A DNA stretch of 64,000 nt from a bacterium. GTDB lineage: Bacteria > Planctomycetota > Planctomycetia > Pirellulales > UBA1268. Within the stretch, counting starts at the first letter, position 1, and each line of letters starts with the position of its first letter. A model generated the notes under the pieces. It was not told the origin of the DNA. It saw nothing but the letters and a program-made list of their open reading frames with translations, and searched no databases. Location: positions 2,110 through 66,109 of the forward strand of contig JAPOJV010000001.1 of the NCBI GenBank assembly GCA_029978085.1. Reading direction: 5' to 3'. Positions 417 to 62,173 of the stretch are shown here, in pieces. Made by a program: the position numbers and the translations under genes.

Positions 417-1507
417 GCGACAGGCCTGCCTTGCTCTCCGATCCGCTGCATGTGGTCGGCCATCTCCGATGCCTCGCGGATGAAGCCCATCTCGACGAGG
501 TCCGCCAAGCACTCGAGTTCACCGGCCCACTGACCTTGTCTTCGGGATCCCACGGCTGGGATGGCCGGCGGGTCGCGAGTGACATGCACAGCGAGCGCGA
601 CCCGCTGCTCCGCCTTCGTCTTGGGGCGCAACCCAGCATCGATCAGTTCGACAATCTGCGCTGGATCTCCATCGATGGACAGGTCGAGTCGCGGCGCAGC
701 CGTGATGTCTAAATCCGGAAAGTGCCTTGATGCGCCCAAAACACCGCCGATGCGGATCGTTCGTGGAAGCTTGCCCGCCCCTTGGAGTCGGACAAGACGT
801 TTGGACATGCGTTCGGCTGAGGTGTGGCCGGTCGGGTCGGTGAACAAGTGGACCTTGCGCAACCGGGCATGGTCACGTGCCAATTCCATCCATTCCCCAC
901 TGGTGAGCTGTCGCATCCGAACACCACGCTCACCACGGTCTTCCAGCCAGCCCTTGTCGCTGAGCTCCTTGAGCACCGACGCCACGGTTGGGTAACTCAC
1001 GCCGCATGTTTCCTGCAGGCGCTTGACCGTCACGGGCGGCTGGTTCCGCAGGCGAAGCTGCGCCAACGTGGCGACGACAATCTGCCGCGGCGGCAATTGC
1101 GGCGAGTGACCGCGCAGGCGTTCGGTCGCCACCAGTTCGTCGAGCCACGCGTGGAATTCATCGGGCACGTCATGGAGCGGCCCGCTGAATGCAGCCACAT
1201 TGCGGCTCCGATCGCCCTTGTCCAGCAGGCAATGGATTCGACTGGCGAGTTCGGGGCGGAGTACGCCTTGAACCCGCTGCAGTTCTTCCTCCAACCGGCC
1301 CGGAGACAGACGCGAGCCGACGAGCACGCACACAGCCCTGCAGCCCACCTGTTCGCCATGCAGAAGGGTGGCGAGTGCTACAAGCGCACCCCGCACGTCC
1401 CGCATGCTGTTGGTCCGCGTGACCTCCACCAGAATCGGACCGGTAGGGCCTTCCCACCTGCCGTCTGCTCGGTAACGGCCTTCGGTGTTGACGTCGCGAC
1501 TCTTCAT
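413..1507 (-). CDS. Hypothetical protein with a central winged-helix/HTH-like segment
   Basis: 364-aa ORF. The segment VTVKRLQETCGVSYPTVASVLKELSDKGWLE looks like a wHTH. The C-terminal IRIGGVLGASRHFPDLDI resembles a degenerate NTase patch. Translationally coupled to the downstream NTase gene. Confidence 0.55.
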   Translation of the reverse strand: MKSRDVNTEGRYRADGRWEGPTGPILVEVTRTNSMRDVRGALVALATLLHGEQVGCRAVCVLVGSRLSPGRLEEELQRVQGVLRPELASRIHCLLDKGDRSRNVAAFSGPLHDVPDEFHAWLDELVATERLRGHSPQLPPRQIVVATLAQLRLRNQPPVTVKRLQETCGVSYPTVASVLKELSDKGWLEDRGERGVRMRQLTSGEWMELARDHARLRKVHLFTDPTGHTSAERMSKRLVRLQGAGKLPRTIRIGGVLGASRHFPDLDITAAPRLDLSIDGDPAQIVELIDAGLRPKTKAEQRVALAVHVTRDPPAIPAVGSRRQGQWAGELECLADLVEMGFIREASEMADHMQRIGEQGRPVA

Positions 1508-4653: not shown

Positions 4654-5147
4654 TCGCCCCCAAGCGCGTGCTCACCGACGAGATGGTGGCCAAGATCGAG
4701 GCGCTCGCGCCGCGGTACCCGAACCGCCGCGCCCTCACACTGCCCGCCCTCCACATCGTGAACGCCGAACTCCGGCACGTGCCGCTCGAGGCGGTGGTCG
4801 AGATCGCCCAGGTGCTGGGGCTCGCGCCGGCCGAGGTGCAGGACACACTCACCTTCTATCAGTTCTTCCATCAGGAAAAGCCCCACGGCACAGTGCGTGC
4901 CTTCGTCTGCCGCTCGGTCTCCTGCGCACTCCGCGGTGGCGATCACCTGCTCGAGCATCTCTGCAAGAAAAACGGCGTCGAGCCGTACGGCACGACACCA
5001 GACGGCAGCCTGACGATCGAGCCGGCGGAGTGCCTGGGAGCCTGCGACTTTGCCCCCTGCATCCTCGCCAACGACGACCTCCTCAAGAACATGACGCCCG
5101 AGGCCGCCGAGGCCGAGCTCAAGAAGCCCCGTGCGAGGGCCACCTGA
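4650..5147 (+). CDS. nuoE: NADH-quinone oxidoreductase subunit E
   Basis: ORF 4227..5147 trimmed to ATG 4650 (ATGA overlap with the nuoD stop). 2Fe-2S cysteines CRSVSC...ECLGACDFAPC. Confidence 0.92.
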   Translation: MIAPKRVLTDEMVAKIEALAPRYPNRRALTLPALHIVNAELRHVPLEAVVEIAQVLGLAPAEVQDTLTFYQFFHQEKPHGTVRAFVCRSVSCALRGGDHLLEHLCKKNGVEPYGTTPDGSLTIEPAECLGACDFAPCILANDDLLKNMTPEAAEAELKKPRARAT

Positions 5148-5148
5148 C

Positions 5149-6504
5149 ATGACTCCGTTCAAGCCCGTCCTGCTCGAAGCCGTCGGCGTGCCCGATGGCC
5201 ACTCCATCGCGAGCTACAAGAGCCGCGGCGGCTACGCCCCGCTGGAGAAGGTGCTCGCGGAGAAGCAGCCGGTCGACGTGGTCGAGATGGTGAAGTCGTC
5301 GGGCCTCCGTGGCCGCGGCGGCGCCGGCTTCTCGACCGGCCTCAAGTGGACGTTCCTGCCGAAGGACCATCCCGGGCCGATCTATCTCTGCGTCAACGCC
5401 GACGAGAGCGAGCCGGGCACATTCAACAACCGGATCCTGATGGAGGACGACCCGCATCAGGTGATCGAGGGAATCATCCTCTCCTCGTATGCCACGCGGG
5501 CCTCCACGGCCTACATCTACCTGCGGTACGAGTATCCGCAGAGCTGGCATCGTCTCCAGGCCGCCATCGACGAGGCGTATGCCGCCGGCTACCTCGGGAA
5601 GAACATCCGGGGCACGACCTTCTCGCTCGACATCTACCTGCATCGCGGCGCGGCCGCCTACATCTGCGGCGAGGAGACGGGGCTGATCGAGAGCCTCGAG
5701 GGCAAGCGGGCCTGGCCGCGGATCAAGCCGCCGTTTCCGGCGATTGAGGGGCTGTTCCGTAAGCCGACGGTCGTCAACAACATCGAGACGATGGCCTGCG
5801 TGGCCCAGATCGCCCGCCGCGGCGTCGACTGGTTCAAGTCGATCGGCGTGCCGGCCGACCCTGCCAATCCCCGCGACCCCGGCTCCTACGGCCCGAAGCT
5901 CTACTGCCTCTCGGGCCACGTGGAGAAGCCGGGCTGCTACGAGGCGCCGCTCGGCATCACCGCGCGGCAGCTGATCGACCAGTTCGGTGGCGGCGTCTGG
6001 AAGGGTCGCAAGGCGAAGGCCGTGATCCCCGGCGGCATCTCGATGGGCCTGATGACGGAGAGTGAGCTCGACACGCCGCTCGACTTCGCCGGCCCGGGCA
6101 AGGTGGGCTGTCTCGGCCTCGGCACCGCGGCCGTCGTCGTGATCGACGACGAGACCAGCATCGTCGACTTCCTCCACAACTCCTGCCGGTTCTTCGCCCA
6201 CGAGTCGTGCGGCCAGTGCACGCCCTGCCGCGAGGGCACGAGCTGGAGCCTGCGGATGCTCGAACGGATCAAGGCCGGCCAAGGCCGCCTCCGGGATCTC
6301 GACCTCTTGCTCGAGATCGGCACCACGATGGGCATGATGCCGGGCAGCACGATCTGTGGTCTGGCCGACGGCGCCGCCTGGCCGATCAAGAACGCGATCA
6401 AGAAGTTCCGCGGCGAGTTCGAAGACTACATCAAGCGGACCAATCCCTCGGGCTGGATGGTCACCGACCCCGTGCCCGCCCTGCAGATCGTCGGAGCCCA
6501 CTGA
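5149..6504 (+). CDS. nuoF: NADH-quinone oxidoreductase subunit F
   Basis: ATG 5149 (MTPFKPVLLE). GLRGRGGAGFSTGLKW FMN/NADH site and the ESCGQCTPCREG 4Fe-4S motif. Confidence 0.95.
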   Translation: MTPFKPVLLEAVGVPDGHSIASYKSRGGYAPLEKVLAEKQPVDVVEMVKSSGLRGRGGAGFSTGLKWTFLPKDHPGPIYLCVNADESEPGTFNNRILMEDDPHQVIEGIILSSYATRASTAYIYLRYEYPQSWHRLQAAIDEAYAAGYLGKNIRGTTFSLDIYLHRGAAAYICGEETGLIESLEGKRAWPRIKPPFPAIEGLFRKPTVVNNIETMACVAQIARRGVDWFKSIGVPADPANPRDPGSYGPKLYCLSGHVEKPGCYEAPLGITARQLIDQFGGGVWKGRKAKAVIPGGISMGLMTESELDTPLDFAGPGKVGCLGLGTAAVVVIDDETSIVDFLHNSCRFFAHESCGQCTPCREGTSWSLRMLERIKAGQGRLRDLDLLLEIGTTMGMMPGSTICGLADGAAWPIKNAIKKFRGEFEDYIKRTNPSGWMVTDPVPALQIVGAH

Positions 6505-6505
6505 T

Positions 6506-6587
6506 GAAAAAGGTGCCAGCCACCATTTTCGCGAAAGCCTCCGCCACGCTGAGCCGCCCCATGAAAATGGTGGCTGGCACCTTTTTC
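6506..6587. repeat. Inverted repeat, copy 1: 25-bp perfect arms, 32-bp spacer, filling the nuoF-nuoG gap
   Basis: GAAAAAGGTGCCAGCCACCATTTTC (6506-6530) pairs with GAAAATGGTGGCTGGCACCTTTTTC (6563-6587). The same 16-nt core occurs at 23922 and 54720. Confidence 0.9.
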
Positions 6588-6601
6588 GTCGGAGTTCGTT
6601 C

Positions 6602-8239
6602 ATGCCCGTAGTCATCGTCGATGGACAAGAGATCGAGATCGGAGCCGACGAGCGGCTCAACTGCATCGAGGCTGCGCGGCGGGCGGGCAAGGAGATTCCG
6701 CACTACTGCTGGCATCCGGGCCTCTCCGTCGTGGCCAGCTGCAGGATGTGCCTGATCGAGACGGGCCAGCGCGATGCCGCCACCGGCAAGGTCACGATGG
6801 TGCCGAAGCTCGTGCCCGGCTGCCAGACGCCGGTCAAGGACGGCACGGTGATCGTCACCGAGAGCCAGCTCGTGAAGGACAGCCGCGCCCGGGTCGAAGA
6901 GGCGCTCCTCATCGATCATCCGATCGACTGTCCGATCTGCGACAAGGCGGGCGAGTGCCTGCTCCAGGACTACCACTTCGAGCACGGCCAGGCCGAGCGG
7001 CGGGCCGATCTCCATCCATTCACGAGCCGCAAGCGGGACGTCGGCCCCACGGTCACGCTGTTCGTCGATCGCTGCATCATGTGCACCCGGTGCGTGCGGT
7101 TCACCCGCGAGGTGTCAGGCACGTCGGAGTTGATGGTCACGTCCCGTGGCGCAAAGGAAGAAATCGACGTCTTCCCCGGGTTCCCGCTCGACAACAAGCT
7201 CGCCGGCAACGTGGTCGATCTCTGCCCGGTCGGTGCGCTCGGCGACAAGGACTTCCTCTATCAGCAGCGGGTCTGGTTCCTGAAGCGGGAGGCGAACGTC
7301 TGCGGCGGCTGCTCGGCAGGCTGCTCGATCCACACCGAACACAACCAAGACACGGTCTACCGGCTCAAGCCCCGCGAGAACCCGCACGTCAACACCTGGT
7401 GGATGTGCGACGACGGCCGCTACGGCTGGCACCACCTCCACGATCAGTCGCGGGTGCTCGCCGCCGGCCGGCGGCGCGATCTCCGTGGCAACGGCCACGG
7501 CACGCCGGGCGATGCCTTCGAGACGATCGAGTGGGCCGACGTCGTGACGCGGCTCCGCGATGACCTCAAGGCCGCGGGCCGTCTCGCAGTGGCCGTCTCG
7601 CCGATGCTCACGGTCGAAGAGGCCTGGATGCTCTGTGCGATCGCCCGCTCGATCGATCCGGAAGCGTTCCTGTCCCTCGGCCACGTGCCCGTGGTCGGGG
7701 CCGATGAAACCTTCCCCGGCGGCTTCACGATCCGCGCCGAGAAGTGCCCCAACCGCAAGGGTGTCGAGGAAGTGCTCGCCCTCTACGGCGCCGGTGGCCG
7801 CTCGTGGGATGACCTCGTGGCCCATGTCGCCGCCGGCAAGGCCGACGCCGCCTGGGTGACCGGCGGCTATCCGACGCCCTGGATCGACGACGCGACCGCT
7901 GCATCCTTCGCCGATCTCACGTGCCTCGTGGTGCAGGACCTCTTCGAGTCGCCGCTCATGAAGCTCGCCACCTGGCGGCTGCCGGCAGCGGGCTTCGCGG
8001 AGCGGGCCGGCACCTGGGTGAACGTGGCCCACCATGCCCAGAGCTTCGGCCAGGCGATCAAGCCGCCGGCCGGCGTCTGGCCCGAAGGGCGGCTGTTCTG
8101 GAACATGCTCGGCCGCCGCGGCCTCTATGACCCCGTCGGCGTGCGGCAGCAGATCGCCGGGTCGGCCGCCCCCTTCGCCGCGCTCGCCGGCGACGTGCCG
8201 GCCACCGGTGTGGACCTTCGCGTGAGGCAGCTCGCATGA
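6602..8239 (+). CDS. nuoG: NADH-quinone oxidoreductase subunit G (short form, 545 aa)
   Basis: ORF 6356..8239 trimmed to ATG 6602 (MPVVIVDGQEIEI), with GGAG 10 nt upstream. Fe-S motifs CRMCLIE, HPIDCPICDKAGECLLQD and CIMCTRCVRF. Confidence 0.92.
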   Translation: MPVVIVDGQEIEIGADERLNCIEAARRAGKEIPHYCWHPGLSVVASCRMCLIETGQRDAATGKVTMVPKLVPGCQTPVKDGTVIVTESQLVKDSRARVEEALLIDHPIDCPICDKAGECLLQDYHFEHGQAERRADLHPFTSRKRDVGPTVTLFVDRCIMCTRCVRFTREVSGTSELMVTSRGAKEEIDVFPGFPLDNKLAGNVVDLCPVGALGDKDFLYQQRVWFLKREANVCGGCSAGCSIHTEHNQDTVYRLKPRENPHVNTWWMCDDGRYGWHHLHDQSRVLAAGRRRDLRGNGHGTPGDAFETIEWADVVTRLRDDLKAAGRLAVAVSPMLTVEEAWMLCAIARSIDPEAFLSLGHVPVVGADETFPGGFTIRAEKCPNRKGVEEVLALYGAGGRSWDDLVAHVAAGKADAAWVTGGYPTPWIDDATAASFADLTCLVVQDLFESPLMKLATWRLPAAGFAERAGTWVNVAHHAQSFGQAIKPPAGVWPEGRLFWNMLGRRGLYDPVGVRQQIAGSAAPFAALAGDVPATGVDLRVRQLA

Positions 8240-9492
8240 CCGACTACTTGCCTTCGCTCCCCACGATCGTCGCGCTGGTGAAGATCGGCCTGCTCATCGG
8301 CGGCCTGATGACGGCGGCCGCCTACCTCGTGCTCGTCGAACGCTGGATGGCCGCCTGGGTGCAGGATCGCAAGGGCCCCAACCGCGTCGGCATTCCGCTC
8401 ACGAAGGTGCGGCTCTTCGGTCTCGGCCAGCCGCTCGCCGACGGCTTGAAGATCATCCTCAAGGAAGACTTCACGCCCAAGCACGTCGACAAGGTGCTCT
8501 ACACGGCGGCGCCGCTCGTGATCCTGGCCGCGTCGCTGGCGATCTTCGCCGCCATCCCGTTCGGCAGTTCGTTGCCACCGATCCCCGCCCTCGGCCTCGC
8601 CGGCGAGGAGCCGTTGCTCGTGGCGCCCGGCCTCGACGTCGGCGTGCTCTGGGTGTTCGCCCTTTCCAGTATCGCGGTCTACGGCGTGCTCCTCGGCGGC
8701 TGGGCGAGCAACAACAAGTACGGCTTCCTCGGTGGCCTGCGGAGCAGCGCGCAGCTCGTGGCCTACGAGATCCCGCTCGGCCTCGGCCTCTTGGGCGTCG
8801 TGCTCGCGGCCGGCTCGCTCAAGCTCGACACGATCATGAACGCCCAGGCATCGACCGGTGTTTGGTATGCGTTCGCCCAGCCGCTCGGCTTCATCGTGTT
8901 TCTCGTGGCCGCCTTCGCCGAGGCGGCGCGGCTGCCCTTCGATCTCCCGGAGGCCGAGCAGGAGCTCGTCGGCGGCTATCACACCGAGTATTCGGGCATC
9001 AAGCTCCTGCTCTTCCTCGTGGCCGAGTTCCTCCACATGGTCACGGCGGCCTTCCTGATCGTGATCATGTTCCTGGGCGGCTGGCACCTCTGGGGTGTCA
9101 CGGGCTCCGGCCCGGTCGAAACGTGGACGGTGGCCCTGCTCCGGTTCGCCGTTCTCTCCGCCAAGATTCTCGGCGTGATCCTGTTCTTCATGCTCGTCCG
9201 CTGGAGCTGGCCGCGGTTTCGGTTCGACCAGCTCATGAACCTCGCCTGGAAGGTGATGCTGCCGCTGGGGCTCGTGAACCTCGTCACGGTGGCGGCCATC
9301 GAGGAATTTCGGCCGCAACTGGTGGCGGCGGTAGGCGAGGGGGCGGCGAAGACGGCCGCGATCGCCATCCCGTGGGTGGTCTTCTTCGTGGGCTGGATCG
9401 CGGCCGGCATGCTCACGCCTTCGGGCACCGACAACACACCGATCCGCACCCACGGCCCGCTCGACATCGAACACGAACTGGTGGAGGTCTGA
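8236..9492 (+). CDS. nuoH: NADH-quinone oxidoreductase subunit H
   Basis: Polytopic ND1-like protein with the motif EAEQELVGGYHTEYSG. ATGA overlap with nuoG. Confidence 0.93.
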   Translation: MTDYLPSLPTIVALVKIGLLIGGLMTAAAYLVLVERWMAAWVQDRKGPNRVGIPLTKVRLFGLGQPLADGLKIILKEDFTPKHVDKVLYTAAPLVILAASLAIFAAIPFGSSLPPIPALGLAGEEPLLVAPGLDVGVLWVFALSSIAVYGVLLGGWASNNKYGFLGGLRSSAQLVAYEIPLGLGLLGVVLAAGSLKLDTIMNAQASTGVWYAFAQPLGFIVFLVAAFAEAARLPFDLPEAEQELVGGYHTEYSGIKLLLFLVAEFLHMVTAAFLIVIMFLGGWHLWGVTGSGPVETWTVALLRFAVLSAKILGVILFFMLVRWSWPRFRFDQLMNLAWKVMLPLGLVNLVTVAAIEEFRPQLVAAVGEGAAKTAAIAIPWVVFFVGWIAAGMLTPSGTDNTPIRTHGPLDIEHELVEV

Positions 9493-23459: not shown

Positions 23460-23903
23460 CTACTTTGCGGCCGGCTCGAAGCCCTTCTCGATGCTGCCGA
23501 AGACGAGCGTGACCTTCTCGTCATCCGACGCCTTCTCGACCTTGCCCTTGCAGTTGTTGCAGCAGAAGCCGACCTCGGCGTCGCCGATGGCGAGCTCCGT
23601 GCCGGCCTTCACCGGTCCGCCGCTGAACGGGCAGCCCTTCTGCTTGAGCTGGCCGGTGGCCACGAGCTGCTGGTGGGCCTTGGCCGCGAACGGCGCCGAG
23701 TCCTTCTCGAACTTGCCCGAGCAGTTGCCGCAGCAGAAGTAGACCTTGCCACCGGCGAAGTCGGCGGCCTTCTCGGGATTGCACTTGGCACCGGAGACCG
23801 GGCACTTCGCGTCCTTCGGCTCTTTCACGGCCGACATGGCGACCGACGAGCACACGACGGCGACGACCAACGCGACGAAAGGCAGGGCGTGACGATTCTT
23901 CAT
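23460..23903 (-). CDS. Secreted protein with two YHS/TRASH-like cysteine motifs (putative metal binding)
   Basis: ORF 23460..24218 trimmed to ATG 23903 (MKNRHALPFVALVVAVVCSSVAMS signal). Repeats CPVSG...GGKVYFCCGNCSGKF and CPFSG...EVGFCCNNCKGKV. AGGAG lies 9 nt upstream. Confidence 0.6.
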   Translation of the reverse strand: MKNRHALPFVALVVAVVCSSVAMSAVKEPKDAKCPVSGAKCNPEKAADFAGGKVYFCCGNCSGKFEKDSAPFAAKAHQQLVATGQLKQKGCPFSGGPVKAGTELAIGDAEVGFCCNNCKGKVEKASDDEKVTLVFGSIEKGFEPAAK

Positions 23904-23921
23904 GACTTGCGACTCCTGTGT

Positions 23922-24003
23922 GAAAAAGGTGCCAGCCACCTTTTGTCTGGAACGGGTCCGTGTCACCTGCGGCGACAGGCAAAAGGTGGCTGGCACCTTT
24001 TTC
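23922..24003. repeat. Inverted repeat, copy 2: 24-bp perfect arms, 34-bp spacer
   Basis: GAAAAAGGTGCCAGCCACCTTTTG (23922-23945) pairs with CAAAAGGTGGCTGGCACCTTTTTC (23980-24003). It lies between the MFS gene stop and the YHS-like gene start. Confidence 0.9.
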
Positions 24004-24091
24004 ACGGCCTGGACCTTCGTTAACGACACGATCATAGGCCCGCGGCGGCCGACGTCGCAATCGGCGAATCGGCCACGATTCCGGCCGGTCG

Positions 24092-25366
24092 TCACCGCCG
24101 CCGGGGCTCGGGGAGCCCCGTGGCCACAGCGGCCCCGGTCGCGATCACCGCCGCCCCGGCCAGGAAGACCGGCCGAAAGCCGACCGCATCGACCATCCAG
24201 CCGACGAGGGGCGAGCATACGAACGGGGCCGCGAGAGCCGCCCCGACGATGCTGACGTAGCGGGCGTGATCGCGAGGCCGGGGCGCGAGTTCGAGCGCAT
24301 AGTTCGTGAAGATCTGGAGTGAGATCGGATTGAGCCCGAGCATCAGGTAGACGATCCAGAACCAGTCAGCCGCGAGTGCGTGGGGGGCGAGCGACAGGCC
24401 AATGACCACCAGCGGCACGAGCGATGAGAGGGCCACGAGCCAGATGAGCACGATACGAGTGCCGCGGCGGTCGGCAGACGGCCCGGCGACGAGGCTCACG
24501 CATCCCGTCGACACGTTTTGAACGACGACCCACGTGAGCAGGCTCATAAGCGGCGTGCCGAGCCGGTCGCGGGCGAATGCCTGATAATGAGGGAACAGCA
24601 TGATCACGCCGGAGAAGCAGGCGGCGACGACCGCCAGCCGCACGAGCGCCCGATCCGCCATGAGCGTGTACCGCCATTCGGCGACGGCCTGTCTGAAGCG
24701 GGCCGCGACTCCCGACTCCCGCACAGCCGTGGCCTGCGTGAGCGGCGCGTCGGGCGGCTCATCGAGAAACGCCGGCACGATCGCCGCCAGGGCGAAGAAG
24801 GCGGCGGTCACTGCGAAGATCTTCGTGAAGCCGTCGGGCTCGGCGAGCCAGGGTCGCAGGAACAGGATCGCGGCGAGGATGGCGAGCAGGCTGCCCAGGG
24901 CGGCATTCACGACGAGCGACCGGCCGCGATGCCCCGGAGCGATGAGCTTGCCCTGCAGGGCGGCGGCGACGAGCTGCGAGAGACCGTTGCAGCCCGAGAA
25001 CGTCGCGTAGAGCACGAGGAACACCGCGGCGAGCAGAGCCGGCTGGGACCGCAGCGGTGTCCAGGCGCAGGCGAGGAGGGCGAAGCAGGCAGCCTTGGCG
25101 ACCGCCGCAGCCACGAGCAGCCACTTCTTGATTGGCCGACGGCCGACGGCCCCTGCGACAAACAGCGGTGGCAGGCTCTGGCCGCCACGGTTGAGCACGG
25201 GCAGGAGGCCGCGGAGCGTGCCCGAATCGACCACGGCGTCGAGCACGGCCGGCATGATGATCGTCTCGGTCTTGAAGATCCAGCCGACGCGGACGATCAC
25301 ATGGTAGAGCTCGAGACAGAGCGTGTTGCGCACCTCTCGCGGGCCGCGTGCGCTGGGCTCGCTCAT
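24092..25366 (-). CDS. MFS transporter
   Basis: 424 aa with about 12 hydrophobic segments and the typical MFS two-halves organisation. Confidence 0.75.
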   Translation of the reverse strand: MSEPSARGPREVRNTLCLELYHVIVRVGWIFKTETIIMPAVLDAVVDSGTLRGLLPVLNRGGQSLPPLFVAGAVGRRPIKKWLLVAAAVAKAACFALLACAWTPLRSQPALLAAVFLVLYATFSGCNGLSQLVAAALQGKLIAPGHRGRSLVVNAALGSLLAILAAILFLRPWLAEPDGFTKIFAVTAAFFALAAIVPAFLDEPPDAPLTQATAVRESGVAARFRQAVAEWRYTLMADRALVRLAVVAACFSGVIMLFPHYQAFARDRLGTPLMSLLTWVVVQNVSTGCVSLVAGPSADRRGTRIVLIWLVALSSLVPLVVIGLSLAPHALAADWFWIVYLMLGLNPISLQIFTNYALELAPRPRDHARYVSIVGAALAAPFVCSPLVGWMVDAVGFRPVFLAGAAVIATGAAVATGLPEPRRR

Positions 25367-30930: not shown

Positions 30931-31087
30931 GGTAGCCCGGTCACGGTAGCCCGGTCACGGTAGCCCGGTCACGGTAGCCCGGTCACGCCGTGACCGGAAA
31001 GCCTGTCACGGCGTGACAGGACCACACCGGAAAGTCTGTCACGGCGTGATAAACCCACTTGAGCCCGTCACGGAGTGACGGGCCTAC
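30931..31087. repeat. REP-like cluster 1: four tandem 14-mers GGTAGCCCGGTCAC followed by four palindromes
   Basis: Tandem units at 30931, 30945, 30959 and 30973. Palindromes: CCGGTCACGCCGTGACCGG (30979-30997), CTGTCACGGCGTGACAG (31003-31019), a degenerate copy (31036-31050), and GCCCGTCACGGAGTGACGGGC (31063-31083) followed by CTAC. Confidence 0.9.
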
Positions 31088-32127: not shown

Positions 32128-32252
32128 GTAGGCCCGTTGCTCCGCAACGGGCAAGCAAGTGGCCCGGTCACGCCGTGACCGGAGAAACAGCCCGTCACGG
32201 AGTGACGGGCCTCCGACCGGCATGCCTGTCACGGCGTGACAGGACCACCTAC
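32128..32252. repeat. REP-like cluster 2: four palindromes with GTAG/GTGG heads
   Basis: GTAG followed by GCCCGTTGCTCCGCAACGGGC (32132-32152). GTGG followed by CCGGTCACGCCGTGACCGG (32164-32182). GCCCGTCACGGAGTGACGGGC (32190-32210). CCTGTCACGGCGTGACAGG (32225-32243) followed by CTAC (32249-32252). Confidence 0.9.
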
Positions 32253-35262: not shown

Positions 35263-35305
35263 GCCCGTCAAGCCACGCAAACCGGTCACGGCGTGGCCGG
35301 GCTAC
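35259..35305. repeat. REP-like cluster 3 (degenerate forward unit plus inverted unit)
   Basis: The GTAG at 35259-35262 contains the mlaD TAG stop. CCGGTCACGGCGTGGCCGG (35282-35300, one mismatch) is followed by CTAC (35302-35305). Confidence 0.75.
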
Positions 35306-41722: not shown

Positions 41723-41763
41723 GCCCGTCACGGAGTGACCGGAACAAGTCACTGCGTGACTTG
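41719..41763. repeat. REP-like cluster 4
   Basis: The GTAG at 41719-41722 contains the TAG stop of the upstream gene. CCCGTCACGGAGTGACCGG (one mismatch) and the perfect CAAGTCACTGCGTGACTTG (41745-41763). Confidence 0.8.
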
Positions 41764-43642: not shown

Positions 43643-43704
43643 CAAGTCACGCCGTGACTTGTTTTCCGGTCACGGCGTGACCGGGCTACCGTGACCGGGC
43701 CTAC
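43643..43704. repeat. REP-like cluster 5 (inverted orientation)
   Basis: CAAGTCACGCCGTGACTTG (43643-43661) and CCGGTCACGGCGTGACCGG (43666-43684), followed by GCTACC-GTGACCGGGC-CTAC. That last segment is 1.7 copies of the 14-mer in reverse orientation. Confidence 0.85.
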
Positions 43705-47971: not shown

Positions 47972-48036
47972 GCAGCCCGGTCACAGTAGCCCGGTCACGC
48001 CGTGACCGGAAGTCTGTCACGGCGTGACAGACCCAC
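47968..48036. repeat. REP-like cluster 6
   Basis: The GTAG at 47968-47971 contains the TAG stop. Two 14-mer heads (GGCAGCCCGGTCAC, AGTAGCCCGGTCAC), then CCGGTCACGCCGTGACCGG (47991-48009) and CTGTCACGGCGTGACAG (48014-48030) followed by CCAC. Confidence 0.88.
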
Positions 48037-54080: not shown

Positions 54081-54782
54081 CTACAGCTCCTTGATGAACA
54101 CGTTGCGGACGTGCATCGGTGCGCCGTGGGTCTGAATCTGGATGGGGCCCGTGGCGGGCAGCGGCTTCCCCTTCTCGAAGAAGTTCGCCAGCGGCGCCGC
54201 ATCGACCACCACCTGCCCATTGAGTTCGACGGTCACCTGCTCGCCGACCATCCTGATCTGCGTCGTGTTCCACTCACCGACGGGTTTGTCGGCCTTCACG
54301 AGCGGCCATTTGCCGGGTGCATCGCCGGGGTTGTTCCACAGGCCACCGGAGCCTTTCTGGCAGCCGTGCTTGAAATCCCGTTCACACTGTGGATCCCAGA
54401 TCTGCACCTGCGGATTTCCGCGGAGGTAGATGCCGCTGTCAGCGCAAGGCTTCGGAAGCATCCACTCGACGAGCAGTTCGAAGTCACCGTAGTCGCGATC
54501 GGTCGTGAGAAACACGCCGTGGCCGTCGCTCACGATCACGCCGTCCTGCACCGTCCAGTGGGCAGCCAGATCGTCGTTCCATTGTTTCTGCCGAGTCTCG
54601 TGCTCCGCAGGCGTGCCTGCCGCCTCCGCCCGTGGATCCAGATGAGGCCGACCCCGCCAGCCGGCCAGGTCACGGCCGTTGAAGAGCGGCGTAAAGCCAG
54701 CCGGTGGCTCCGCCCCAACAAAGGTGCCAGCCACCAAATCCAGGCAAGCCAGCACAAACACAGCGCAGCGAAGTCTCGTCAT
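54081..54782 (-). CDS. DUF1080 (3-keto-disaccharide hydrolase family) secreted protein
   Basis: ORF 54081..54854 trimmed to ATG 54782 (MTRLRCAVFVLACLDLVAGTFVGA). FTPLFNGRDLAGWRG, WTVQDGVIVSDG and YGDFELLVEW. Confidence 0.85.
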   Translation of the reverse strand: MTRLRCAVFVLACLDLVAGTFVGAEPPAGFTPLFNGRDLAGWRGRPHLDPRAEAAGTPAEHETRQKQWNDDLAAHWTVQDGVIVSDGHGVFLTTDRDYGDFELLVEWMLPKPCADSGIYLRGNPQVQIWDPQCERDFKHGCQKGSGGLWNNPGDAPGKWPLVKADKPVGEWNTTQIRMVGEQVTVELNGQVVVDAAPLANFFEKGKPLPATGPIQIQTHGAPMHVRNVFIKEL

Positions 54783-54819
54783 CAACGCATCTTCTCCAGA
54801 TTTGGTGGCTGGCACCTTT
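54720..54819. repeat. Inverted repeat, copy 3: 21-bp perfect arms, 58-bp spacer, straddling the DUF1080 start codon
   Basis: AAAGGTGCCAGCCACCAAATC (54720-54740, inside the CDS, encoding DLVAGTF on the minus strand) pairs with GATTTGGTGGCTGGCACCTTT (54799-54819, beginning 1 nt after the upstream gene's stop). Confidence 0.9.
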
Positions 54820-55845
54820 TTAAACCGCGACGGGTGCGCCCCCTTGCGCCGCACTTTTGTCGGCGGCGAAGATCACGGCGAACGTGCGGGCGGCCTCGCG
54901 GAAGCTCGTGAGCGGCATCGGCTCGCCCCGGTCGAGGGCGTCGAAGAACGCCTGGAACTGGGCCTGATACGGGTGGTCGCTCACGTCGCCCGAGTCGAGC
55001 ATCTTCATCGAGAGCCGGCTCCAGTGCCCCTTATCGGCCTTGAGCTTCATCGAATGGAAGCGGTCGTCGAGCAGGCTCCCCTCGCTGCCGACCAGGTGCG
55101 TGTGGAAGTAGTAGGGCTGCAGGCAGTCGACGATCGCGGCCGTCTTGCCTACGGCGCCGTTCTTGAACCGCAGGATCGTGACGCTCGACGTGTCGTATTC
55201 GTACGGCGTGAAAAACTCGCTCGCCGACTTGGTGCTGATGCTCGACACGCTCTCCACCTCATCTCCCATGAGCATGAGCAGCGCATCGAGCGCGTGGCAG
55301 CCAGCCGTGAGCAGGGCGCTGCCCCCCTCCTTCTTGCCGGTGTTCCACCGGTATTGGCCATACCAGGGGCCGATCCCGTGGTAGTAGTCGACCTCGCCGT
55401 AGTGCAGCCGGCCGAGCAGCCCCTCGTCGAGCAGCGCCTTCGTCACCTGGAACTGGTTGGAGAACCGACACTCGAAGCAGACGCAGCCCTGCACGCCGTT
55501 GGCCTCGGCCGCCGCGAGGATGTCGCTGACTTCCTCCGGCGAGTTGGCCATCGGCTTCTCGAGGATCACGTGCTTCTTCGCCTTCGCCGCCGCGACAGCC
55601 TGCTCACGGTGCAGGCTCGGCAGGCCCGTGATGTCGACGACGTCGATCCCGGGATCGGCCAGCATGTCGTCGAGCCGCTGATACACACGGATCGGGCAGC
55701 CGTGCTTCGCGGAGAGCTCCGCCGCATCGAGCGGCCGCGACGAGCAGACGGCCACGACGCGGCCCTGCCGCGTGGCGTTGATGGCGGCCAGGTGGGCCGT
55801 CGCCGCCCAGCCGTAGCCCACGATGCCGACGTTCACGTTCTTCAT
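54820..55845 (-). CDS. Gfo/Idh/MocA-family oxidoreductase (no signal peptide)
   Basis: VGIVGYGWAATAH Rossmann motif, VILEKPMA. ATGA overlap with the upstream gene. Confidence 0.88.
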   Translation of the reverse strand: MKNVNVGIVGYGWAATAHLAAINATRQGRVVAVCSSRPLDAAELSAKHGCPIRVYQRLDDMLADPGIDVVDITGLPSLHREQAVAAAKAKKHVILEKPMANSPEEVSDILAAAEANGVQGCVCFECRFSNQFQVTKALLDEGLLGRLHYGEVDYYHGIGPWYGQYRWNTGKKEGGSALLTAGCHALDALLMLMGDEVESVSSISTKSASEFFTPYEYDTSSVTILRFKNGAVGKTAAIVDCLQPYYFHTHLVGSEGSLLDDRFHSMKLKADKGHWSRLSMKMLDSGDVSDHPYQAQFQAFFDALDRGEPMPLTSFREAARTFAVIFAADKSAAQGGAPVAV

Positions 55846-62003: not shown

Positions 62004-62050
62004 GTAGGCCCGTTGCTCCGTGACGGGCTGCCCGTTGCGGAGCAACGGGC
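62004..62050. repeat. REP-like cluster 8
   Basis: GTAG (62004-62007) followed by GCCCGTTGCTCCGTGACGGGC, a hybrid of the two stem types, and then GCCCGTTGCGGAGCAACGGGC (62030-62050). Confidence 0.85.
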
Positions 62051-62173
62051 CTCCAGTGGGCTGGCGTTCAGCCCCGTGGCGTTCGCCAGACAGGATGGCG
62101 AATGTCTTCGATCTCGCGATCAAGCGGATCGAACGAGATGCAGGAGCCGACACGCCGACGTCCCGAGCGGCGG

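Follow-up and report, generated by a model that had tools for sequence, protein, structure and literature searches.

A likely REPIN-type mobile element, from an apparently undescribed planctomycete family, at the nuoF-nuoG junction

Why does a tightly packed nuo operon have one wide gap, between nuoF and nuoG, and why does that gap hold a long, strong palindrome? We addressed this question for a 64,000-nt stretch of DNA (the window) from a bacterium of the Pirellulales (Planctomycetota; assembly GCA_029978085.1, contig JAPOJV010000001.1, positions 2,110 to 66,109). Our answer, in which we have high confidence, is that the palindrome is a REPIN, which is a doublet of repetitive extragenic palindromic (REP) sequences that forms a hairpin. 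More precisely, it would be a non-autonomous mobile element, mobilized in trans by a single-copy HUH/Y1 transposase, and a dispensable insertion. The transposase would be a RAYT (REP-associated tyrosine transposase) or a "TIRYT" (the corresponding enzyme associated with terminal inverted repeats).

The geometry of the palindrome is as the initial annotation described it. Its arms are perfectly complementary over 25 nt (6506-6530, GAAAAAGGTGCCAGCCACCATTTTC, and 6563-6587) and are spaced by 32 nt; they can be stretched to 28 nt at 96% complementarity (6503-6530 and 6563-6590). The stop codon of nuoF (TGA, 6502-6504) and the start codon of nuoG (ATG, 6602-6604) are 97 nt apart, with the GGAG of nuoG at 6591-6594. 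The element abuts the nuoF stop codon at 2 nt, and it ends at C6587, which is 14 nt before the ATG (15 nt if counted from the T5 run). The gap is also an outlier, as had been claimed: we recomputed the eight junctions from nuoA to nuoI, and the gaps are -10, 45, 3, -4, 1, 97, -4, and 1 nt. (The claim had been made for fourteen junctions, which is one too many, as 14 genes have 13 junctions.) The parts of the element are as follows.

6506..6587, no strand: REPIN-like element, copy 1 of the window (evidence: the sequence, the inverted repeat, RNA and DNA folds, the family, and orthologous copies)
6507..6530, plus strand: 5' arm, with A5 (6507-6511), the invariant core GGTGCCAGCCACC (6512-6524), and a copy-specific inner stem, ATTTTC (6525-6530)
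6531..6562, no strand: spacer (loop) of 32 nt, poorly conserved (evidence: comparison of identity between orthologues)
6563..6586, plus strand: 3' arm, with GAAAAT, GGTGGCTGGCACC, and T5 (evidence: the inverted repeat and the arm logo)

In other words, copy 1 reads G-A5, the 13-mer core, ATTTTC, the 32-nt loop, GAAAAT, the inverted core (core'), and T5-C. The core itself holds a nested mini-palindrome, GGTG-N5-CACC. As RNA, copy 1 has a predicted folding energy of -61.9 kcal/mol (z = -6.6 relative to shuffled sequence), and as single-stranded DNA, -35.6 kcal/mol (z = -9.7). The stem is about 30 bp in the fold, with U5 paired to A5. A promoter and terminator scan of positions 5000-8000 reported no sites, and Rfam had no matches in the whole window at its gathering threshold. 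Permissive Rfam scans of copy 1 and of one type-A copy gave only sub-threshold hairpins of miRNA precursors. A sigma-54 promoter, for which the TGGCAC in the arm is a candidate, was rejected by eye: the flanks have no TTGC at the spacing of a -12 box.

Copy 1 belongs to a family of dispersed repeats. The window contains six exact occurrences of a 16-nt core, which form three inverted pairs (6506-6587, 23920-24005, and 54718-54821), so the three copies that were initially noticed are all there. With up to 3 mismatches, the core has 10 matches in the window (0.44 expected). The three copies have only their ends in common. Their loops are unrelated, and their stem extensions differ (ATTTTC/GAAAAT, TTTTG/CAAAA, and AAATC/GATTT for copies 1, 2, and 3).

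We scanned one genome per species for the pattern GGTGCCAGCCACC-N40-70-GGTGGCTGGCACC and found at least 110 loci. (L-numbers refer to loci in related public genomes or metagenome assemblies.) Nearly all of these are in metagenome-assembled genomes (MAGs) of Planctomycetota, with 61-74% G+C, and several MAGs have at least 5-6 loci each. The initial annotation would have counted a lack of copies beyond the window against its view; they are abundant in related genomes. The 118 paired elements sort into subfamilies. The dominant subfamily has the form AAAAA-core-AAATCTGGGCAA...TTGCCCAGATTT-core'-TTTTT; the others are elements with a pair of internal GC hairpins, palindromes that are short and perfect, and the ATTTTC...GAAAAT type. 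This last type, or subfamily "C," was met solely at the nuoF-nuoG site, as copy 1 and its orthologues in L015, L144, L191, L131, L010, and L057. Across subfamilies, the ends are conserved and the interiors are variable or subfamily-specific, with the hairpin retained. Pairing at variable positions of the inner stem is 0.92, 0.97, 0.74, and 0.81 (vs. 0.64, 0.68, 0.50, and 0.59 with shuffled partners), and the covariation includes swaps from A·T to T·A and from G·C to C·G.

The consensus of 230 arms is AAAAAGGTGCCAGCCACCAAATCTGGG. In the logo, conservation is at background up to position -7, there is a weak preference for G (0.45) at -6, and then A5 begins abruptly. The nested palindrome is a 4-bp GGTG/CACC stem around 5 nt, which is weaker than in classical REPs. 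Two variant cores, GGTGACAGTCACC (L131 2410-2484) and GGTGGCAGCCACC (L015 4822-4901), have the same substitutions in both arms, and these lengthen the mini-palindrome by 1 bp, to 5 bp. In 113 of 115 copies, we found no anchored direct repeat above control, which would have indicated a target-site duplication; the other two copies, in L015 and L106, have repeats of 18 and 26 nt. A test for short target-site duplications across the family copies was negative as well.

Solo arms are rare. Most apparent cases are a coding motif of NuoH, GGWHLW: its longer form, FLGGWHLWG (GGCGGCTGGCACCTCTGG), is found at 9076-9091 of the window and in about 55 nuoH loci, and it mimics the arm core with 2 mismatches. 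This motif is a chance look-alike, and it inflates searches that allow mismatches. Membership in viral contigs was considered and rejected: there were 15 matches to single arms, and since none of them has a partner, these are chance matches. Family elements also turn up on MAGs labelled 'Ca. Kuenenia' (L001, L021, L036, L040, L045, L048, and others), 'Chitinophagaceae' (L026, L046, L067, and L094), and 'Acidobacteriota' (L103). Because the G+C content of the contigs is 61-74%, this points to public records that are mislabelled or mis-binned.

In related genomes, the arms are associated with a transposase gene. L088 carries several copies of the element along with a 232-aa open reading frame (ORF; 679-1374, minus strand) whose motifs are NHWHMV (HUH) and YVERNP (Tyr). 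The ORF matches Pfam's Y1_Tnp (PF01797) with 46 bits (cutoff 23), and its best match in NCBIfam is NF047646, 'REP-associated tyrosine transposase' (71.5 bits). Among solved structures, the sole match is PDB 4ER8, which is E. coli TnpA-REP (E = 6e-7); the TnpA structures of IS608 and ISDra2 were not among the matches even at E ≤ 1. A homologue that is 47% identical is encoded at L086, from a Tepidisphaeraceae MAG (class Phycisphaerae). Planctomycetota assemblies have thousands of homologues of the transposase, nearly all of which were seen on one or two contigs. For the homologues that we looked up, the same genomic neighbourhood recurs across different samples, so the transposase gene is single-copy and at a fixed chromosomal position.

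At all 6 of 6 independent loci (L088, L086, L210, L213, L214, and L215), the transposase gene is flanked by an arm upstream and an inverted arm downstream. For example, the order in L210 is AAAAGGTGCCAGCCACCAAATCTGGGTAATTTG, 35 nt, the transposase gene, 10 nt, and ATTACCCAGATTTGGTGGCTGGCACCTTTT. The arm varies with the transposase lineage (GGTGCCTGCCACC, GGTGGCAGCCACC, or GGTGCCTGGCACC), and a 13-nt core is common to transposase lineages that are only 47% identical and that come from two classes (Planctomycetia and Phycisphaerae). Because bracketing of the gene by the arms is the defining layout of REPIN-RAYT systems, we file the element as REPIN-type. From the sequences, the planctomycete RAYT is the putative enzyme that recognizes the arms. 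Downstream of the Tepidisphaeraceae RAYT gene (L086 5734-5780), the arm's terminal portion (TGGCACCGTTTTTTACGA) occurs twice in tandem.

Relatives show what the nuoF-nuoG junction looks like without the element. As a sample of sites, we picked 80 metagenome loci by the similarity of their NuoG (87-99% identity), blind to the element, and about 72 of the junctions were usable. In 45-50 of the ~72, the site is empty (...atcgtcggagcccacTGATGccg): the TGA of nuoF overlaps the ATG of nuoG (TGATG), and the GGAG of nuoG lies inside nuoF. The element is present in three to four of the ~72 (the window, L144, L191, and L131), or 4-5% of metagenome junctions. The comparison with the nuo operons of relatives, which the initial annotation had proposed, thus finds the gap and the element in a few of them. 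At the remaining junctions, there are either different spacers or hairpin inserts (36, 113, 148-157, or 212 nt) that are unrelated to the element. Three more filled sites (L015, L010, and L057) come from the genome scan that selected for the core, outside this unbiased sample. The next features are defined by comparison with the empty sites.

6489..6506, plus strand: left junction copy, CGTCGGAGCCCACTGATG, with the last codons of nuoF, the TGA at 6502-6504, and the old overlapping ATG
6587..6604, plus strand: right junction copy, CGTCGGAGTTCGTTCATG, which supplies the GGAG (6591-6594) and the ATG (6602-6604) of nuoG
6504..6611, plus strand: bridging ORF of 35 codons (MKKVPATIFAKASATLSRPMKMVAGTFFVGVRSCP and a stop codon), which starts at the old ATG of TGATG and overlaps the TGA of nuoF

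In filled sites, 17-18 nt of the junction are duplicated on both sides of the element. The two copies agree at 13 of 18 positions in the window and at 17 of 18 in L015 (whose right copy is CGTCGGAGCCCATTGATG), and L131 and L144 have similar duplications. The CGTC that follows copy 1 belongs to the duplicated end of nuoF.

There are seven distinct filled lineages (the window together with L111, L015, L144, L191, L131, L010, and L057), and because their interiors are homologous, they descend from one insertion. They are scattered among the relatives. Their nearest relatives by nuoG have an empty or different junction: at the nucleotide level, the window is 95.7% identical to L115, and the corresponding values are 96.2% for L144 and L159 and 97.3% for L191 and L171. 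This distribution suggests that the insertion is dispensable and was lost or exchanged repeatedly. The patchiness would fit repeated precise loss via the direct repeats or else allelic recombination.

Separately, the junction is a hot spot, as relatives have at least four other, unrelated inserts immediately upstream of nuoG. These are 36 nt (L168, L171, L174, L175, L179, and L183), 113 nt (L157, L177, L180, L182, and L193), 148-157 nt (L116 and L129), or 212 nt (L149). One unrelated insert bears an A5/T5 hairpin of its own (GTGGAAAAAGCC..GGCCTTTTTCCAC) and a GC hairpin, and the 212-nt insert contains a long palindrome.

The arms are under constraint. Among those orthologous copies that were picked up with no selection for a perfect core, the arms are 90.7% identical, as compared to 53.1% for the loop and 64.9% for four-fold degenerate sites in nuoG. 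The hairpin is kept at -42 to -50 kcal/mol in all seven lineages. In L131, the same two changes appear in both arms (GGTGACAGTCACC and GGTGACTGTCACC). Ends that are held constant, or altered in concert, are expected for recognition sites of a transposase or from homogenization against other copies.

How could a translationally coupled junction have accepted such a hairpin? We propose that in the ancestor, nuoF and nuoG were coupled by the overlapping TGATG, with the Shine-Dalgarno sequence of nuoG inside the end of nuoF. A REPIN, with two inverted REP-like ends, a spacer that is free to vary, and a long hairpin as single-stranded DNA, would have landed at the TGATG, and the insertion would have owed its survival solely to a duplication of 17-18 nt of the junction. 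The left copy would keep the stop codon of nuoF, and the right copy would rebuild the GGAG and ATG of nuoG. The nuo transcript would now bear a hairpin of about 30 bp. Ribosomes that leave nuoF may translate the short ORF from the old ATG to the start of nuoG, melt the hairpin, and so relay the coupling to nuoG. We infer this relay for the nuoF-nuoG site specifically. The net effect on the expression of complex I would probably be small. By analogy to REPs, an effect on RNA processing or stability is a plausible side effect, as is one on termination at nuoF or initiation at nuoG. At most, the hairpin could plausibly act as a barrier to 3' exonucleases that stabilizes nuoA-F, or it could mildly dampen the initiation of nuoG.

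A bridging ORF of 29-37 codons is present in 5 of the 7 filled lineages (the window, L015, L131, L144, and L191). In the window, the first base of its TAG lies 7 nt downstream of the A of the nuoG ATG. In L015, L131, and L144, its stop codon and the nuoG ATG overlap as TGATG, and in L191, its stop codon starts 9 nt before that ATG. Three indels between lineages (+6, +18, and -3) are all multiples of three. The ORF is annotated as a gene in two assemblies (including GCA_041161525.1). Its peptide begins with KKVPAT... and ends with ...MVAGTFF, which are the translated arms, and the paired changes in L131 are radical in the protein (VPAT to VTVT and VAGT to VTVT) and keep the DNA palindrome, so the constraint on the bridging region acts on DNA or RNA, not on protein.

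Across the family, copies lie close to stop and start codons. Their gene contexts (80 in total) are 61 co-directional, 11 divergent, and 8 convergent, with no preference for the ends of operons. Among 96 upstream stop codons, 42 are within -4 to +6 nt of the element's edge, 7 are exactly at -30, 7 are deeper inside, and none are from -29 to -5; the remainder extend out to several hundred nt. The downstream start is typically 0-30 nt past the edge. Placement next to stop codons could reflect either targeting of sites that resemble stop codons or survival bias. The host genomes leave little space between genes: convergent gaps have a median of 45 nt, and one quarter are ≤3 nt. REPs with a GTAG tag have the same habit of hugging stop codons (Di Nocera et al., PMC3733652).

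Some copies contribute to the adjacent genes. The stop codons at -30 are a TAA that is supplied by the arm (...KKVPATKSG*), and it ends seven upstream genes. At least 20 copies enclose the start codon of the downstream gene, and part of a signal peptide of the Sec, lipoprotein, or twin-arginine (TAT) type is then encoded by the far arm (..LVAGTFF.. or ..GGWHLF..). Loci with one or the other arrangement include L008, L024, L026, L041, L073, L099, L110, and others, the window's 54718-54821, L004, L016/L108, L023, L087, L101/L109, and L014/L027/L043. At L106 (2813-2930), a duplication of 26 nt (CGATGGAAGCCTGGTAAAGCGATGAA and CGATGGAAGCGTGGTGAAGCGATGAA) flanks an element in a stop/start junction that was 4 nt wide.

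Is the family more than a passenger? It could be that its elements supply stop codons, Shine-Dalgarno sequences and start codons, and the N-termini of signal peptides, and that copies in coupled junctions persist only with a duplication of 17-26 nt and, at nuoF-nuoG, also with a translated bridging ORF. We doubt this, and give it a small chance. If it is true, then there would be an insertion route that creates long duplications, the coupling from nuoF to nuoG would be relayed by a hairpin that ribosomes melt, and the element would be a built-in modulator of the stoichiometry of the N-module of complex I. We know of no insertion route for HUH or RAYT enzymes that yields long duplications.

Several observations weigh against the element being a REPIN that is mobilized by a RAYT, or against the relay that we propose. 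The flank duplications of 17-26 nt at nuoF-nuoG and L106 are not predicted by HUH transposition. Conservation of the arms could reflect gene conversion among copies instead of selection at the level of the host. The score for NF047646 (71.5) falls just below the equivalog cutoff of 80. The arm consensus contains neither GTAG nor CGTC, which are tags of classical REPs. A tblastn search, limited to the 64-kb window, found no RAYT. As for the bridging ORF, the idea comes from one locus, and the pattern of indels has a probability of ~0.04 by chance. L010 and L057 have no bridging ATG, and in L106, the ORF that begins at the duplicated ATG runs only as far as a stop codon in the loop. Across the family, there are fewer open frames in the sense direction than in the antisense direction (1.87 vs. 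2.28, P = 0.002). This deficit and the stop in L106 rule out a family-wide version of the bridging ORF or of read-through.

Could the hairpin instead have a function in the operon? The initial annotation raised the possibility of a bidirectional terminator that splits nuoE-F from nuoG-N, and a dedicated intrinsic terminator or attenuator would uncouple transcription of nuoA-F from nuoG-N. Either strand does read A5, a GC-rich stem, and T5, the hairpin is very stable, and some E. coli REPs cause partial termination. But intrinsic terminators have a stem of ~5-14 bp, a loop of 3-8 nt, and an unpaired U-tract; copy 1 has a ~30-bp stem, a 32-nt loop, and a U-tract that is itself paired with A5, and the terminator scan did not pick it up. 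Family members show no excess between convergent genes (8 of the 80 contexts), many copies lie 0-30 nt before a start codon, contain one, or are partly inside an ORF, 45-50 of the ~72 relatives have the same operon without any gap, and a conserved ORF reads through the hairpin. Given the wrong geometry, the lack of convergent enrichment, the same operon without the element, and the read-through, we consider a dedicated terminator to be quite improbable. Slightly less so is a cis-regulatory RNA hairpin that the host selects for processing, stability, or coupling, which would tune NuoE/F relative to NuoG-N, with the mobile origin being incidental. The arms of the orthologous copies are conserved well above four-fold sites, the hairpin stays at -42 to -50 kcal/mol in seven lineages, and the bridging ORF stays in frame. 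Also, Newbury reportedly found in 1987 that REPs stabilize upstream segments of mRNA, and Liang, Rudd and Deutscher are said to have found in 2015 that a REP that lies no more than 15 nt from a stop codon influences how the upstream gene is translated. Yet the element is patchy even between nuoG alleles that are 96-97% identical, and in other relatives, this junction is occupied by unrelated inserts. Furthermore, the conserved part is exactly what is common to all of the genomic copies and to the flanks of the transposase gene, as it would be for recognition by the transposase or for gene conversion. Overall, we think that a host-selected regulator is unlikely.

The other explanations concern what kind of sequence this is. 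The 35-codon ORF might be a real small-protein gene with an incidental palindrome, as gene callers report it in two assemblies and as it is found in five lineages with its start and stop coupled to nuoF and nuoG. But the ends of the peptide are merely translated arms, and the same arms occur elsewhere in all frames and at non-coding positions. The paired changes in L131 are radical in the protein and preserve the palindrome, the middle, which is encoded by the loop, is 53% identical at the DNA level, and most relatives have no such ORF. A protein-coding role is very hard to credit. We give just as little weight to a classical miniature inverted-repeat transposable element (MITE) of the DDE type, that is, a deletion derivative of an insertion sequence (IS) with terminal inverted repeats. 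A pair of inverted ends with little between them would suit a MITE, and the arm-gene-arm layout is IS-like, but 113 of 115 copies have no target-site duplication, the bracketed gene encodes a Y1/HUH enzyme and not a DDE enzyme, this gene is single-copy and fixed in its chromosomal position, and the subfamilies retain the hairpin despite their different interiors. The mobile inverted-repeat element that the initial annotation mentioned as one possibility is the reading that we retain: REPIN-like, with a cognate RAYT-type transposase, and with an empty TGATG in most close relatives.

How does this REPIN-like family compare to known systems? In published descriptions, a REPIN has ends and a hairpin that are conserved, a spacer that varies, and a nested REP palindrome, and REPINs flank a RAYT gene that is present in a single copy (Bertels and Rainey 2011, PMC3116915; the RAREFAN preprint, 10.1101/2022.05.22.493013; Bertels 2017, PMC5581495). 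The planctomycete elements share the inverted conserved ends (perhaps with a nested palindrome in each), the variable spacer, the hairpin, the many dispersed copies, the lack of target duplication, and the long vertical persistence. They also share the single-copy Y1/HUH gene with these ends on either side, and the ends change along with the transposase lineage. They differ in that the hosts are Planctomycetota (Planctomycetia and Phycisphaerae) and not Proteobacteria. Also, the arms have no GTAG tag, start with A5, and have a tiny nested palindrome (GGTG-N5-CACC), the copies hug stop and start codons very tightly, and two sites have long junction duplications. In TIRtrons, a RAYT-like gene is flanked by inverted repeats without GTAG, with genome-wide families of dimers; R. 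baltica is rich in TIRYT genes and repeats, and repeats can supply stop codons or lie within ORFs (Di Nocera et al. 2013, PMC3733652). By layout, the planctomycete system matches these features. However, the core was not found in the published literature that we searched, and the arm sequence is not in the TIRtron paper or its supplements. We conclude that the element is a further case of REPIN-RAYT or TIRtron: the kind is known, and the family in Planctomycetota is apparently new and undescribed.

Two more comparisons are with repeats in or beside genes. Like the REPs and bacterial interspersed mosaic elements (BIMEs) in E. coli operons (e.g., malE-malF), copy 1 is a transcribed intercistronic hairpin that abuts the upstream stop codon, and by analogy, it could plausibly stabilize mRNA or influence upstream translation. 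Unlike them, it has a far longer stem, and a bridging ORF reads through it. Rickettsia palindromic elements (RPEs) and the Correia elements of Neisseria are likewise palindromic mobile repeats in or beside genes, where they can undergo in-frame translation or co-transcription. Insertion of a Correia element produces a TA duplication, and to our knowledge, these elements have no RAYT, nor do RPEs have a known transposase.

The other two copies in the window are as follows.

23920..24005, no strand: copy 2, which is subfamily B minus one internal hairpin, with arms of 30 nt that are 97% complementary
54718..54821, no strand: copy 3, whose A-run is overlapped by the TAA of the upstream GFO/IDH/MocA gene

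Copy 2 lies between a gene for an MFS transporter (24095-25366, minus strand), whose stop codon ends 89 nt away, and a gene for a small secreted protein (start at 23903, minus strand), 19 nt away. A gene for a 3-keto-disaccharide hydrolase begins inside copy 3, where its Shine-Dalgarno sequence, its ATG (54791, minus strand), and the greater part of its signal peptide lie. The far arm of copy 3 encodes ..LVAGTF.., and L021 and L051 have the same arrangement.

The window also has a second, unrelated repeat, a self-complementary REP of 20 nt (CCCGGTCACGCCGTGACCGG) with 13 matches (0.02 expected). It is found at 30974-31025, 32159-32248, 35281-35301, 41724-41743, 43665-43685, and 47990-48010, and two of these sites are doublets. 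GTAG precedes 4 of 8 copies, and GTGG precedes most of the others, so it resembles a classical GTAG-tagged REP. Because such a family sits beside the REPIN-like one, this genome probably hosts two REP systems. A palindrome at 62006-62052, with arms of 23 nt (AGGCCCGTTGCTCCGTGACGGGC and GCCCGTTGCGGAGCAACGGGCCT) and a 1-nt center, is unrelated to either family.

Overall, insertion of a mobile element explains the odd gap in a tightly packed, essential operon. With this reading, the locus should not be mistaken for a terminator or a small gene in annotation (gene callers already report the 35-aa ORF). The analysis also records, in Planctomycetota, a REPIN-RAYT system whose ends carry no GTAG, and it thereby extends a system that has been studied almost only in Proteobacteria. 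Finally, the series of empty sites, filled sites, and junction duplications at nuoF-nuoG is a clean natural experiment, in which a strong hairpin is tolerated in a translationally coupled junction.

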